This document shows positions 2,882 to 8,446 of a stretch of DNA of 8,446 nt, one piece after another. The notes under the pieces are model-generated. The model saw only the letters and a program-made list of their open reading frames with translations. It was not told the origin of the DNA and searched no databases. Every line of letters begins with the position of its first letter. Position 1 is the stretch's first letter. Position numbers and translations under genes: made by a program. Source of the DNA: a virus (lineage: Duplodnaviria; Heunggongvirae; Uroviricota; Caudoviricetes); IMG/VR virus record IMGVR_UViG_2740892235_000006. One strand, 5' to 3'.

Positions 2882-3574
2882 TTAATTGTGTCGCTTAAGG
2901 GTTTGTGACTGACTGATTAAGACCTTCCCAAAGACCATAAACCGGTGTTCGTTTTCGCTGGTAATTCCCCATTCACGGTAAATCTGGTTATCAGAAATCA
3001 CCAGTAGTTTGTCAGGTATCATTTGCAGTCGTTTGACATAAATTTTATCATCAAAACCAAACACATAGATACCATCCCCATCAAACTGATTGATACTGAT
3101 ATCAACGAAGATGAGATCTCCTGGCTCAATGGTTGGACACATACTGTCCCCACGAACGTTGATAACTTTAATGTGATTGGCTGGTCGTCCTCCAAACATC
3201 GATACAGCATTATCAGTTATGTATTCAATGGCATGAATCACATCAATGACATCACCGCCCTGGATAAGGCCATTTCCCGCACTGGCACTGACATCCAGCA
3301 TTTCAATACGGAATACATCCTTCACCTGCGCAACATCCTCACCAGTACTGTTTTTACATACAGTATTACTTTTGAAGTCTGAGGTAAAGAGATCTGCAAT
3401 ATCAACACCTAAGCTCCTGGCAATATTACTCAGGGCTTGTTCAGTGAATTGTTTCTGCTTACCTGTTTCCAGGCGTGAGATATTCGCCGCATCCACTCCT
3501 ATTGCTTCAGCGAGATCGGCGATTTTCATGTTCTTCGCCTGGCGAAGTTGTCTGACTCGATTTCCTATGTTCAT
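2882..3574 (-). CDS. CI-type phage repressor, 230 aa: N-terminal XRE-family helix-turn-helix plus C-terminal S24 (LexA-like) autopeptidase
   Basis: N-terminus MNIGNRVRQLRQAKNMKIADLAEAIGVDAANISRLETGK is a typical HTH. C-terminal half carries the S24 signature GDSM (catalytic Ser) and a downstream YVKRL (Lys). It is divergent from the cro-like gene. No SD precedes the ATG. Confidence 0.9.
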   Translation of the reverse strand: MNIGNRVRQLRQAKNMKIADLAEAIGVDAANISRLETGKQKQFTEQALSNIARSLGVDIADLFTSDFKSNTVCKNSTGEDVAQVKDVFRIEMLDVSASAGNGLIQGGDVIDVIHAIEYITDNAVSMFGGRPANHIKVINVRGDSMCPTIEPGDLIFVDISINQFDGDGIYVFGFDDKIYVKRLQMIPDKLLVISDNQIYREWGITSENEHRFMVFGKVLISQSQTLKRHN

Positions 3575-3932: not shown

Positions 3933-4476
3933 GCATCACTGGAAAGTGGAAAAACAGCCTGAGTGGTACGTGAAAGCGGTCAGAAAAACTATCGCGGCGT
4001 TGCCGGGTGGTTACGCTGAAGCAGCTGAGTGGCTGGATGTAACAGAGAACGCTTTATTCAATCGCCTTCGTGCCGATGGCGATCAGATTTTCCCGCTGGG
4101 ATGGGCAATGATTTTACAGCGCGCGGCTGGCACTCACTACATTGCGGATGCTGTCGCACAGTCTGCTGATGGGGTGTTTGTATCGCTTCCTGACATTGAG
4201 GAAGTAGAGAACGCCGATATAAACCAGCGCCTGCTGGAAGTCATCGAACAGATCGGGAGTTACTCAAAGCAGATTCGTTCGGCAATCGAAGATGGGGTAG
4301 TGGAGCCACACGAGCAGACAGCAATGAATGATGAGTTGTATCTGTCAATTTCGAAGCTCCAGGAGCATGCGGCACTGGTCTACAAAATTTTCTGCGCTCC
4401 AGAAAAGAGTGACGCCCGCGAGTGTGCAGCTCCGGGCGTCGTGGCGTTTTGTGTCTGTGGAGAAACTAACGCATGA
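3925..4476 (+). CDS. CII-like phage regulatory protein (resembles the phage 186 CII / CP76 type), 183 aa, GTG start
   Basis: Strong SD AAGGAGG 6 nt upstream of GTG 3925. Position is immediately after cro. Segment ALFNRLRADGDQIFPLGWAMILQRAAGTHYIADAVAQ resembles the 186-CII-type family from memory. Confidence 0.65.
   Translation: MGKHHWKVEKQPEWYVKAVRKTIAALPGGYAEAAEWLDVTENALFNRLRADGDQIFPLGWAMILQRAAGTHYIADAVAQSADGVFVSLPDIEEVENADINQRLLEVIEQIGSYSKQIRSAIEDGVVEPHEQTAMNDELYLSISKLQEHAALVYKIFCAPEKSDARECAAPGVVAFCVCGETNA
4409..4457. terminator. GC-rich hairpin with pyrimidine/U-rich flanks on both strands inside the 3' end of the CII-like gene; candidate bidirectional terminator
   Basis: Stem gacgcccg (4411-4418) and cgggcgtc (4433-4440), extendable by 3 bp inside the loop. 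Minus-strand RNA continues ACUCUUUUCUG. Plus-strand RNA continues GGCGUUUUGUGUCU. Confidence 0.4.
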
Positions 4477-5636
4477 ACAGTTTAACGGCAAATAACCGTT
4501 TGTCGCAACAGCTGGTGGTCAGTGTCGCTGCACACCTGTTGTTACGGCATGAATGCAGATTACCAAATCACCTGGCTGTAAGTAACCACAGAGAACTTTA
4601 CCTGACTGTGGGGGGCGAGTTGTGCAGGAACTTAACCGCTGGTTTCGTGACGGAAGAGGACTTTATGTTCATGTTATTCGTTGGGAGCCAGAAACACAGC
4701 GCGTTATCTATCTTCGCAAAGACTACCCGCATGAGTGCTTTAGTCCTTTGTGGAAATTCAGGCGTGATTTTGTTGAGTGTGAAGGACCAGCAGCATATTG
4801 ATTCTGCAATTCCGGGACGTTACACTGTACCGGCACCTTATAAAGCGGGTGCCGGGATTGGCGTCCTGAAATTGATTACTGAGCATAACCGCGCTCATGC
4901 GGTTTTTTCGTGTCATGAGCATTGCTACGCCCAAATTATGGTGGGGCGTACAGGGCCGACTTCGGTCGGGCCGGGTTCGGTAGTCTCCGGTAACGCCAAC
5001 CCTGTACGTCTCACCACCTCTGTGATTGGCGTCCCATGTGGTGAGTTTTCTAAAAAACTGACTACCGGGGCTGTCACTATGACTACTCTCCCAACCCTCT
5101 CTCAACCTGAAATTGCCATCGTTGATGGTCAGGCTGTTACATCTTCTTTGGCTGTTGCTGACTTCTTCTCTAAACGTCATGACGATGTTCTGAAAAAGAT
5201 CCGCATTTTGGATTGTTCTCCAGAGTTTTGTGCCCGCAATTTTGCGGAGACATCAATTTTGGTACGCCAGCCCAACGGCGGTACTCGCAAACTTCCCTGC
5301 TATCAAATCACCCGCGACGGTTTTGCGTTTCTTGCCATGGGCTTCACTGGTAAACGTGCTGCCCGGTTCAAAGAGGCATACATCAACGCCTTTAACCTGA
5401 TGGAGAAACAGCTTTCAAAGCCCGCTGTACCGAGCGACGTTGCACATAACGCCAGCGTTCTCTGTTCCTACATTTCATCAATTCATCAGGTCTGGCTGCA
5501 GCAGCTTTATCCTATGTTGGCAAAAGCCGAATCTCCGCTGGCTGTTAGCTTATATGACTATATTAATGATGCTTCGGCGCTGGCCTGCCTCATAAATTTG
5601 TCGCTGAACCCTTCAGAGGCAAGGGGGCGCAAATGA
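4473..5636 (+). CDS. 387-aa ORF with a C-terminal Rha-family phage regulatory domain (residues about 203-387) and an N-terminal 200 aa of uncertain coding status
   Basis: ATG 4473 overlaps the CII-like stop (ATGA). The segment from M203 (ATG 5079), MTTLPTLSQPEIAIVDGQAVTSSLAVADFFSKRHDDVLKKIRIL...YQITRDGFAFLAMGFTGKRAARFKEAYINAFNLMEKQL, matches the Rha signature (FGKRHDNVLRDI-like, MGFTG). The upstream 600 nt is open in frame but rich in rare codons (tta, ggg, aga, agg). A G6 run at 4610-4615 connects to a second open frame. Confidence 0.6.
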   Translation: MNSLTANNRLSQQLVVSVAAHLLLRHECRLPNHLAVSNHRELYLTVGGELCRNLTAGFVTEEDFMFMLFVGSQKHSALSIFAKTTRMSALVLCGNSGVILLSVKDQQHIDSAIPGRYTVPAPYKAGAGIGVLKLITEHNRAHAVFSCHEHCYAQIMVGRTGPTSVGPGSVVSGNANPVRLTTSVIGVPCGEFSKKLTTGAVTMTTLPTLSQPEIAIVDGQAVTSSLAVADFFSKRHDDVLKKIRILDCSPEFCARNFAETSILVRQPNGGTRKLPCYQITRDGFAFLAMGFTGKRAARFKEAYINAFNLMEKQLSKPAVPSDVAHNASVLCSYISSIHQVWLQQLYPMLAKAESPLAVSLYDYINDASALACLINLSLNPSEARGRK

Positions 5637-6674: not shown

Positions 6675-6767
6675 ATGAGTCTTTTGAATGAAGTTCAGAA
6701 ATTCATTGAAGCCCATCCGGGCTGTACTTCCGGAGACATTGCGGATGCTTTTTACGTGGGGGCTTAA
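6675..6767 (+). CDS. 30-aa ORF (MSLLNEVQKFIEAHPGCTSGDIADAFYVGA), possibly the remnant of a longer gene cut at a module junction
   Basis: Starts 2 nt after the O-like stop and its TAA overlaps the methyltransferase ATG. Its last 15 nt are shared with the different gene found upstream of the second methyltransferase copy. Confidence 0.3.
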   Translation: MSLLNEVQKFIEAHPGCTSGDIADAFYVGA

Positions 6768-8047
6768 TGAGTAATAAATATTGCCAGGCGCTGGTAGAAC
6801 TGCGGAACAAACCAGCCCATGAACTGAAGGAAGTGGGCGATCAGTGGCGCACGCCGGACAACATTTTCTGGGGAATTAACACCTTGTTTGGTCCGTTTGT
6901 TCTGGATCTGTTCACTGACGGTGATAACGCCAAATGTGCCGCGTATTACACGGCGGAAGACAACGCGCTGGCGCATGACTGGTCAGAACGTCTTGCGGAG
7001 CTTAAAGGTGCTGCCTTTGGTAATCCCCCATACAGCCGCGCCAGTCAGCATGAGGGGCAATACATCACCGGCATGCGTTACATCATGAAGCATGCCAGTG
7101 CCATGCGTGATAAAGGCGGGCGCTATGTTTTCCTGATTAAAGCTGCCACCAGCGAAGTGTGGTGGCCGGAAGATGCAGATCATATTGCTTTTATTCGCGG
7201 GCGTATTGGTTTTGAACTGCCTGTCTGGTTTATCCCGAAAGACGAGAAGCAGGTACCGACAGGCGCTTTCTTCGCTGGTGCTATTGCTGTTTTCGACAAG
7301 ACCTGGAAGGGACCGGCAATCAGCTACATCGGGCGCGATGAACTTGANNNNNNNNNNCAGAACGAAATAATTTTCTGGCGCGTCGTGAACGGTGTTTACG
7401 GAAAAGCAGCAAGCGGGCTGCATCAGGTGAAGAGTGGTATCTGTCAGGGAATTACGTGGGGGCTTAATGAGTAATAAATATTGCCAGGCGCTGGTGGAAC
7501 TACGGAACAAACCAGCCCATGAACTGAAGGAAGTGGGCGATCAGTGGCGCACGCCGGATAACATTTTCTGGGGAATTAACACCCTGTTTGGCCCGTTTGT
7601 TCTGGATCTGTTCACTGATGGTGATAACGCCAAATGTGCTGCGTATTACACGGCGGAAGACAACGCGCTGGCGCATGACTGGTCAGAACGTCTTGTGGAG
7701 CTTAAAGGTGCTGCCTTTGGTAATCCCCCATACAGCCGCGCCAGTCAGCATGAGGGGCAATACATCACTGGCATGCGTTACATCATGAAGCATGCCAGTG
7801 CCATGCGTGATAAGGGCGGGCGCTATGTTTTCCTGATCAAAGCTGCCACCAGCGAAGTGTGGTGGCCGGAAGATGCAGATCATATTGCTTTTATTCGCGG
7901 GCGTATTGGTTTTGAACTGCCTGCCTGGTTTATCCCGAAAGACGAGAAGCAGGTGCCGACAGGAGCGTTCTTCGCTGGTGCTATTGCTGTTTTCGACAAG
8001 ACCTGGAAGGGACCGGCAATCAGCTACATCGGGCGCGATGAACTTGA
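6752..8047. repeat. Two near-identical methyltransferase tiles (6752-7347 and 7452-8047) with different upstream contexts, separated by the N10 gap at 7348-7357
   Basis: Identity begins at the shared string ttacgtgggggcttaatgagtaataaata; sequence further upstream differs completely between the two copies. Confidence 0.85.
6767..7347 (+). CDS. Phage Dam-type N6-adenine DNA methyltransferase, copy 1, truncated at the N10 gap 7348-7357
   Basis: NPPY catalytic motif (GNPPYS) encoded at 7022-7033. Reads MSNKYCQALVELRNKPAHELKEVGDQWRTPDNIFWGINTLFGPFVLDLFTDGDNAKCAAYY. Typical nin-region position after the replication gene. Confidence 0.8.
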
Positions 8048-8120
8048 GGCATGTGGTGAGGCCTTTCTGGCGCAGGTTCGCCAGCAGGCGGAAAAACTGG
8101 TCAGGGAGATGGCGGCATGA
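7467..8120 (+). CDS. Phage Dam-type N6-adenine DNA methyltransferase, copy 2, complete at 217 aa
   Basis: Same protein as copy 1 with two amino-acid differences (A to V, V to A) and several synonymous changes. NPPY motif present. The track ORF 7434-8120 starts at an upstream in-frame ATG; the start at 7467 matches copy 1. Confidence 0.85.
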   Translation: MSNKYCQALVELRNKPAHELKEVGDQWRTPDNIFWGINTLFGPFVLDLFTDGDNAKCAAYYTAEDNALAHDWSERLVELKGAAFGNPPYSRASQHEGQYITGMRYIMKHASAMRDKGGRYVFLIKAATSEVWWPEDADHIAFIRGRIGFELPAWFIPKDEKQVPTGAFFAGAIAVFDKTWKGPAISYIGRDELEACGEAFLAQVRQQAEKLVREMAA

Positions 8121-8446
8121 CGACGTTAACTCAATGCCAGCAGCAGGTGCTGGATATGCTGATTTCTTACCAGCAAGAACGTGGCTTCCCGCCAACTAAT
8201 CAGGAGGTGGCAACCATGCTGGGATACCGTTCAGTGAATGCAGCGGTGGAGCATCTTCGCGCACTGGAGAAAAAAGGCGTCATCACGATAAANNNNNNNN
8301 NNTCAGAAAGAGCGTGGCTTTCCGCCAACCAATCAGGAGGTGGCAACCATGCTGGGATACCGTTCGGTGAATGCAGCGGTGGAGCATCTTCGCGCACTGG
8401 AGAAAAAAGGCGTCATCACGATAAAGCGTGGCGTGGCCCGGGGGAT
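8117..8446 (+). CDS. LexA N-terminal DNA-binding-domain-like (winged helix) protein, partial; runs off the window end and crosses the N10 gap at 8293-8302
   Basis: ATG 8117 overlaps the methyltransferase stop (ATGA). [59 protein letters not shown] aligns by eye to the LexA N-terminus ([58 protein letters not shown]). Segment 8303-8425 repeats 8170-8292 with substitutions and extends to ...KRGVARG. Confidence 0.65.

Follow-up and report, generated by a model that had tools for sequence, protein, structure and literature searches.

Among the described systems, the closest studied analogue of the gene reported here appears to be gp6 of GIL01, a tectivirus of Bacillus thuringiensis. This truncated homologue of LexA shares 44% identity with the host protein; it binds a non-SOS palindrome, GaCACAnnTGTGaC, overlapping the -35 element of the late promoter P3, and activates this promoter (PMC6182141). 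Gifsy-type prophages, a second described system, carry LexA-controlled antirepressor modules (Lemire et al. 2011, PMC3121763). In LexA itself, the base-contacting residues are Ser39, Asn41, Ala42, Glu44 and Glu45 (PMC3091678). In the present study we analysed a stretch of 8,446 nucleotides from a virus of the Caudoviricetes (IMG/VR record IMGVR_UViG_2740892235_000006), here called the window, which ends within a gene for a predicted LexA-like protein. We are highly confident that positions 8117-8446 are the 5' part of a 108-codon gene, located in the nin region of a lambdoid prophage, for a small predicted DNA-binding protein of the LexA family.

The LexA-like protein is predicted to have the fold of E. 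coli LexA, with a root-mean-square deviation (rmsd) of about 1 Å over 66-69 residues and 51% identity (1lea/3jso). Common to both proteins are S39, N41, A42, E45 and H46 in helix 3 and R64, G65 and I66 in the wing, and the likeness extends through the linker to the cleavage-site region. Unlike LexA, the protein has no S24 peptidase/dimerisation domain and no counterpart of Ser119 and Lys156, has Val in place of Glu44, and carries a helical hairpin (residues 75-103) at the point where the C-terminal domain of LexA starts. It is also encoded by a phage, in an operon of early lytic genes, and has no SOS box of its own for autoregulation. Judged by its description, GIL01 gp6 is likewise a phage-encoded LexA DNA-binding domain without a cleavage domain. 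However, gp6 has a 14-residue tail forming a wing, whereas the LexA-like protein has an extra hairpin of 40 residues, a recognition helix much closer to that of the host LexA, and carriers among the lambdoid phages of Gram-negative hosts.

PHROG 362 is the same family, since the match runs end to end and the gene order PerC / (Dam) / LexA-like / rusA is identical; the window gene differs only by the Q20/K20 allele and a scaffold gap. As for the Gifsy-type modules, they share with the present phages the presence of host-type LexA boxes inside prophages, which couple phage genes to SOS. Relatives of the LexA-like gene stand in or beside Gifsy-like modules, namely with a LexA-boxed Rha gene in the type of Edwardsiella phage EPP-1, and with a LexA-boxed KilA-N gene in 5 of 80 IMG/VR loci whose product is at least 99% identical to the LexA-like protein; these are the 80 loci referred to below. 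The Gifsy-type modules, however, contain no gene for a LexA homologue and depend entirely on host LexA. Unlike in those modules, the window has C4/isrK-type RNAs, rather than a strong LexA box, in front of its Rha-type gene.

A small LexA-family protein without an S24 domain

The LexA-like open reading frame (ORF) starts with the ATG at 8117-8119; the upstream ORF terminates with the TGA at 8118-8120. The ATGA overlap with a methyltransferase gene, described in the initial annotation, was therefore real by direct reading of the sequence. In the window only 58 codons of the LexA-like gene are uninterrupted; they encode helices 1-3 of a LexA-type winged helix-turn-helix (wHTH) and the first strand of its wing, and codons 67-108 together with rusA lie beyond the window end. 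The results of the Pfam search showed that these 58 codons matched PF01726 (LexA_DNA_bind) with 65.2 bits (E 4.7e-18, cutoff 23.7), so that the likeness to the LexA N-terminal winged helix, first noticed by eye, proved correct and well past chance.

The complete gene was examined in the phages mEp460_4F5 and Stx2a_1447, where it has 327 nt and encodes 108 amino acids, with a 3' end, GTATGA, that overlaps the rusA start. For the full protein, Pfam gave LexA_DNA_bind alone (residues 1-65, 69 bits). There was no Pfam match to Peptidase_S24 (PF00717) and no Ser/Lys dyad, and the protein had 108 residues in every full copy examined. Of the two domains considered in the initial annotation, the LexA DNA-binding domain was thus confirmed in the full protein and the downstream S24 domain was absent. 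The NCBIfam LexA equivalog TIGR00498 scored 70.8 bits, below its cutoff of 110.95, and was covered at profile positions 1-91 of 203 only, and phrog_362 ("transcriptional repressor") matched with 199.9 bits over residues 1-108 and profile positions 1-106 of 106. In a PDB sequence search with the protein, the best matches were all LexA proteins, with the N-terminal domain of E. coli LexA (1lea) at E 7e-16.

A single-chain AlphaFold (AF2) model was built from an alignment of 17 family members, with a predicted local distance difference test score (pLDDT) of 79. In this model, helices were predicted at residues 6-22, 28-35 and 40-52 and a two-stranded wing at 56-58 and 66-68, followed in the C-terminal half by a linker of low confidence (71-74) and two helices forming a hairpin (75-87 and 93-103). 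When the model was compared with the PDB by Foldseek, the 12 best matches were all LexA, with rmsd values of 0.9-1.2 Å over 66-69 residues. A LexA-type fold was therefore supported by PF01726, the PDB sequence search and Foldseek alike. The architecture is almost certainly that of a wHTH (1-68), a short flexible linker (69-74) and a conserved two-helix hairpin (75-103), with no S24 domain; because this domain is missing, sensing of activated RecA through self-cleavage is impossible for the LexA-like protein.

HMMER aligned A88-G89 of the protein (LLAGEE) to the LexA cleavage site VAAGEP (A84-G85). In the model this pair lies in the turn between two helices, and it is variable among relatives, which have TG, AE, ER, TR, AC or AD at this position. 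A role of LLAGEE as a working LexA-type cleavage site, be it a substrate cleaved in trans or a pseudo-substrate, was provisionally set aside, since the Ala-Gly pair is unconserved and sits in a helical turn. A PADLOC scan for anti-phage defence gave a marginal CARF match only, which is meaningless.

Of 5426 complete E. coli genomes, 2233 carried the 327-nt gene, 2222 of them at 80% coverage or more, with at most 4 copies per genome, and the ORF was intact in 2222 genomes. With so many near-identical 327-nt copies, a continuation of this particular gene into an S24 domain beyond the window end is very unlikely. Phage carriers include SfV (orf42), SfII, SfIV, cdtI, mEp460 (gp46), Stx2a_1447 (Stx2a_1447_18) and Stx2a, Stx2c and Stx2k converting phages. 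The copies in mEp460, SfII, SfV, cdtI and the Stx2a, Stx2c and Stx2k phages were 98-100% identical and have 108 codons, and protein identity to the phage members of PHROG 362 was 96-100%. The RefSeq/PGAP labels were "LexA family transcriptional regulator" and "LexA family protein", with "LexA repressor" in one row among the matches listed; the records of mEp460 gp46 and SfII carry the name "LexA DNA binding domain protein". Two protein clusters, of 782 and 2527 sequences, are named "LexA family transcriptional regulator", and relatives occur in Salmonella, Citrobacter and Hafnia. The LexA-family identity is already annotated, under a name that rests on similarity.

More distant relatives with the wHTH and hairpin were found at 40-50% identity: mEp390 has one (gp43, encoded immediately before rusA), and others occur in Klebsiella phages and in roughly ten clusters formed at 50% identity. 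Down to this level the architecture is conserved across Escherichia, Citrobacter, Klebsiella and other hosts, and the tail follows the pattern R/KxLL...A...A..(W/F/Y)L across subfamilies.

Recognition helix and LexA boxes

At the five base-contact positions of LexA, the LexA-like protein has S39, N41, A42, V44 and E45, so that four of five are kept. The recognition helix was identical in all 80 loci, and most of the positions conserved in the family are also common to LexA. Binding of the protein to LexA boxes, as a decoy or an uncleavable repressor, would be compatible with this evidence.

LexA boxes were searched for with a position-specific scoring matrix (PSSM) made from 21 sequences that we take to be E. 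coli SOS boxes (a list not derived from a database). The near-perfect box TACTGTTTTTACATACAGTA was the sole match of at least 9 bits in the window. It lies inside the linker-coding part of cI, at the codons for NTVCKNS, and is a candidate operator of host LexA, possibly also of the LexA-like protein. The cI-internal box is kept in mEp460, Stx2a_1447 and SfII, and also in the cI gene of phage Eeyore, which is 73% identical and diverged in both flanking linker stretches (further positions in Table 1). On the cI strand, a conserved TTTAC(C/A) stands 17 nt upstream of the TACTGT of this box; speculatively, this might be an internal promoter under LexA control that would yield a C-terminal fragment of CI.

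In the mEp460 genome, CTGT-N8-ACAG was observed 5 times against 0.6 expected, and the other CTGT/ACAG spacings (0-7 and 9-20) were at background level, none being enriched. Two of the five sites lie at the promoter of a dinI-like gene, a third is the cI-internal box, a fourth lies downstream of cII, and the fifth is at the start of a late methylase gene. The last of these, a strong box (22-24 bits), lies within the late "DNA methylase" gene, 8 nt past its annotated start and shortly before the lysis cassette; it was found in mEp460, mEp460_4F5, Stx2a_1447 and Eeyore. The canonical LexA boxes of the carrier phages fit a lineage wired into the SOS system. The window also holds an exact CTGT-N8-ACAG palindrome, CTGTAAGTAACCACAG, at 4576-4591 between the cII-like gene and the isrK/C4 RNAs, scoring below 9 bits on the PSSM.

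The EPP-1 type of the family is shorter, with 71 amino acids and the DNA-binding domain only, and its helix, RSPNAAE[ED]H, is almost identical to that of LexA. Its gene lies directly behind a Rha-family gene, which in 7 of 9 loci is itself preceded by a strong LexA box, some 800 bp ahead of the LexA-like gene. In EPP-1 this box overlaps a TACAAT hexamer resembling a -10 element; the relatives are loci L170-L176. Such a layout would be expected of a feedback regulator that binds LexA boxes, and the arrangement resembles an antirepressor operon under SOS control that carries its own LexA mimic. In five of the 80 loci carrying the LexA-like gene, a LexA box, TACTGTATTTATGAACAGTG, and a 275-aa gene, KilA-N-like by eye, directly follow rusA. 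This layout resembles a Gifsy-type LexA-controlled antirepressor.

Proposed mechanism and alternative explanations

The LexA-like gene lies in the nin region, as first proposed, with the replication genes on one side and Q on the other. No own-strand promoter-like or terminator-like sites were found flanking it, which fits membership of the rightward early operon driven by pR. Under the mechanism we propose, the protein would be made only when transcription from pR reads through the nin region, that is, upon infection or after induction. It would probably dimerise through its C-terminal hairpin and probably bind LexA-type operators through their CTGT half-sites, and activated RecA would be unable to inactivate it. 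Once host LexA has been destroyed, SOS boxes of host and phage could thus be re-occupied; among the phage sites these would be the cI-internal box, the dinI-like promoter and the late methylase start. As an outcome, the set of SOS-controlled genes would be damped or re-timed during lytic growth.

The isolated N-terminal domain of LexA still recognises SOS operators, though weakly. From the recognition helix and the boxes, an uncleavable binder of LexA-type operators made during lytic growth seems to us possible but doubtful. The whole statement, joining the 108-aa LexA-family identity with this SOS-box mechanism, we hold tentatively, with doubt somewhat outweighing belief. A further-reaching form, in which this mini-LexA would turn off, or alter the timing of, the host SOS regulon and the LexA-controlled antirepressors of rival prophages and would help to lock the lytic decision via the cI-internal box, is arguable but unlikely.

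Several observations weigh against the SOS-box mechanism. The contact residue Glu44 of LexA is replaced by Val. In the wider family, positions 44/45 of the mEp390 group are VA in 36 loci, AE in 27 and VE in 8, and the helix of a Klebsiella relative reads SSSKAVLLH; LexA specificity is therefore not a uniform constraint across the wider family. In phage Eeyore both the cI-internal and the late-methylase box are present and the LexA-like gene is absent, so host LexA suffices for such boxes, and they are no evidence of binding by the phage protein. No LexA box was found beside the LexA-like gene in the window's family, and a new dimerisation module need not keep the half-site spacing of LexA. The sole truncated phage LexA that has been studied, GIL01 gp6, uses a different operator and is an activator (PMC6182141). 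Finally, full-text literature searches, with most subscription-journal papers outside their coverage, found no study of the 108-aa protein.

Nearly as likely as the SOS-box mechanism, and rather unlikely in its own right, is an explanation in which the protein would be a dedicated regulator like gp6. Its LexA-derived domain would have drifted to a private operator and would switch a phage promoter in the early-to-late programme. The precedent of gp6, with its non-SOS operator and its activation of P3 (PMC6182141), speaks for this possibility, and the E44V replacement together with the variable 44/45 positions of related subfamilies suggests shifts in specificity; the LexA-like gene also lies just upstream of Q and the late region. 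On the other hand, the helix with four of five LexA contact residues shows no variation in 80 loci, the surroundings of the gene revealed no candidate private operator, and mEp460 was enriched at N8 only, in a search limited to CTGT/ACAG palindromes. A private operator with another spacing of these half-sites was rejected as a candidate, as spacings of 0-20 in mEp460 showed N8 only.

A decoy acting through protein contacts is improbable. In this explanation the hairpin with its LLAGEE turn would dock into activated RecA or into the active site of an S24 protein (LexA, CI or UmuD) and modulate cleavage, the wHTH being secondary. The conservation of the tail pattern across subfamilies would agree with such a role, and phage modulators of LexA cleavage are known, reportedly including GIL01 gp7 (PMC4551915). 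DinI, moreover, is described as an inhibitor of RecA-mediated LexA cleavage (PMC7556043), and the carrier phages have a dinI-like gene. However, the Ala-Gly motif is not conserved, and conservation is strongest at the DNA-binding surface common to LexA.

It is quite improbable that the gene is a functionless remnant of a captured lexA hitch-hiking in the nin region. Genes of this region are generally dispensable in lambda, and we know of no phenotype for the LexA-like gene, which counts for such a reading. Against it stand the large number of genomes with an intact ORF, the invariant helix, and the preservation of the architecture across hosts at 40-50% identity; in addition, differences between alleles of the LexA-like gene are mostly synonymous (e.g., 7 synonymous versus 3 non-synonymous).

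Very improbable, too, is a control module linked to the methyltransferase, in which the DNA binder would regulate or cooperate with the Dam-type enzyme in the manner of a restriction-modification controller protein. The assignment of the upstream gene, whose true start is the ATG at 7467, as a Dam-type methyltransferase was itself borne out by PF05869 (Table 1), and its length equals that of the annotated gene in Stx2a_1447 and mEp460. The ATGA overlap and an adjacency in 54 of the 80 loci favour a module. In the other 26, however, a PerC-family gene occupies the same ATGA start and the methyltransferase is absent, and the ATGA was present at the LexA-like start in all 80, whichever gene stood upstream. 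The invariant neighbour was rusA, found 3' of the LexA-like gene in 80/80 loci, its start overlapped by the LexA-like stop in each. Homologues of the methyltransferase were found in 262 phage records, about 220 of them at less than 80% identity. Among the matches listed, none of 37 methyltransferases below 80% identity had a LexA-like neighbour; where annotated, this neighbour stood only beside methyltransferases at least 95% identical (about 41 records). The methyltransferase/LexA-like pair of the initial suggestion is thus not conserved across phage genomes, an obligate module was rejected by the co-occurrence counts, and the module explanation is already largely refuted by them. Because of these neighbour and homologue counts, the methyltransferase appears to be an optional insert between the PerC-like and LexA-like genes and no functional partner. 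The ATGA coupling is a general habit of the nin operon, linking most of its genes.

Hardly conceivable, finally, is the second SOS sensor once envisaged, a full LexA/CI-type repressor with an off-window S24 domain cleaved on activation of RecA: it has in its favour only the N-terminal LexA similarity and the alignment of A88-G89 to VAAGEP, and is refuted by the 108-codon length of all full copies examined, which have no S24 domain for RecA-dependent self-cleavage and no Ser/Lys dyad, and by an Ala-Gly pair that varies among relatives and sits between two helices in the model.

Scaffold structure and other features of the window

The coordinates of the features are collected in Table 1. All eight N10 gaps have duplicated flanks, and the window looks like a scaffold of overlapping contigs from related prophage alleles; ORFs that cross a gap are therefore artefacts. 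The duplicated flanks probably come from related prophages within one genome. At the LexA-like gene, positions 8304-8425 are a direct repeat of 8171-8292 with 96% identity, and the offset of 133 nt puts the second copy out of frame. Its translation, QKERGF...KRGVARG, carries Q20K and matched PF01726 at 51 bits. This duplication of codons 19-66 is a scaffolding artefact, not biology. The 394 bases around the junction were 98% identical to at least 50 phage records with annotated 327-nt genes. The methyltransferase gene, too, stands twice in the scaffold in near-identical form, at 6767-7347 and at 7467-8120, the latter being the second copy.

Two further observations concern the interval between the replication gene and the methyltransferase. 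Of the PerC-family gene that occupies this interval in reference phages (L002 5080-5568), the window retains only a stub of about 90 nt, at approximately 6676-6767. At the PerC-like gene the window is about 396 bp shorter than Stx2a_1447, by deletion or as an assembly artefact.

Table 1 Features of the window and LexA boxes in related loci
Feature	Position	Strand	Basis
CI-type prophage repressor, HTH (helix-turn-helix) + S24 peptidase	2882..3574	-	PF00717 67 bits; HTH_3/HTH_26
Canonical LexA box TACTGTTTTTACATACAGTA, candidate operator	3346..3365		PSSM 25.8 bits
Dam-type DNA N6-adenine methyltransferase gene, 217 aa	7467..8120	+	PF05869 155.9 bits; PADLOC MTase_II 522 bits
ATGA start/stop overlap, methyltransferase/LexA-like gene	8117..8120	+	direct sequence reading
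LexA-like gene, codons 1-58 + 2 nt (Q20 allele)	8117..8292	+	PF01726, 98% nt identity, Foldseek
N10 scaffold gap, breaks LexA-like gene after codon 58	8293..8302		direct sequence reading
Second, out-of-frame copy of codons 19-66 (K20 allele), runs off window end	8304..8446	+	repeat, translation, PF01726
N10 gaps, n=8	624-633, 781-790, 1190-1199, 1281-1290, 1597-1606, 1967-1976, 7348-7357, 8293-8302		flanks duplicated, 96-99% identity
cI-internal box, related loci	L003 (mEp460) 31970-31989, L002 1763-1782, L007 794-813, L008 964-983		
Late-methylase box, related loci	L003 (mEp460) 41021-41040, L001 11249-11268, L002 11289-11308, L009 11326-11345		
TACTGTATTTATGAACAGTG box, related loci	L057 974, L074 4765, L076 3755, L077 4765, L084 4765		
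EPP-1 box in front of Rha gene	L006 1731-1750		

The S24 repressor which the prophage had been said to carry elsewhere was found as CI (Table 1), and CI is the actual SOS sensor of this prophage. In the antirepressor region, an isrK Hfq-binding RNA (Rfam, 59 bits) and a C4 antisense RNA (82 bits) were found on the plus strand at 4833-4909 and 4934-5021, respectively, just upstream of a Rha-domain gene, in which the Rha match starts from about residue 21 of the reading begun at 5079. The layout resembles ImmI of P1 (c4 RNA and antirepressor). The 5' end of the 387-aa ORF at 4473-5636, called "antirepressor" in reference phages, is probably over-called.

Significance

As a sequence feature the LexA-like gene is ordinary, with similarity-based annotations in thousands of genomes. 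It matters only if the function suggested by its sequence is true, and its link to the methyltransferase is one of gene order only. We consider its overall standing low to moderate, that of a real, widespread gene whose predicted function is easily testable. If the prediction is true, induced prophages in about two fifths of E. coli strains, Shiga-toxin phages included, would supply a LexA DNA-binding head that is insensitive to RecA. The SOS response, with mutagenesis, filamentation and the release of colicins and toxins, could then be reshaped, and competition among co-resident prophages and the timing of Shiga-toxin (Stx) phage induction could change.

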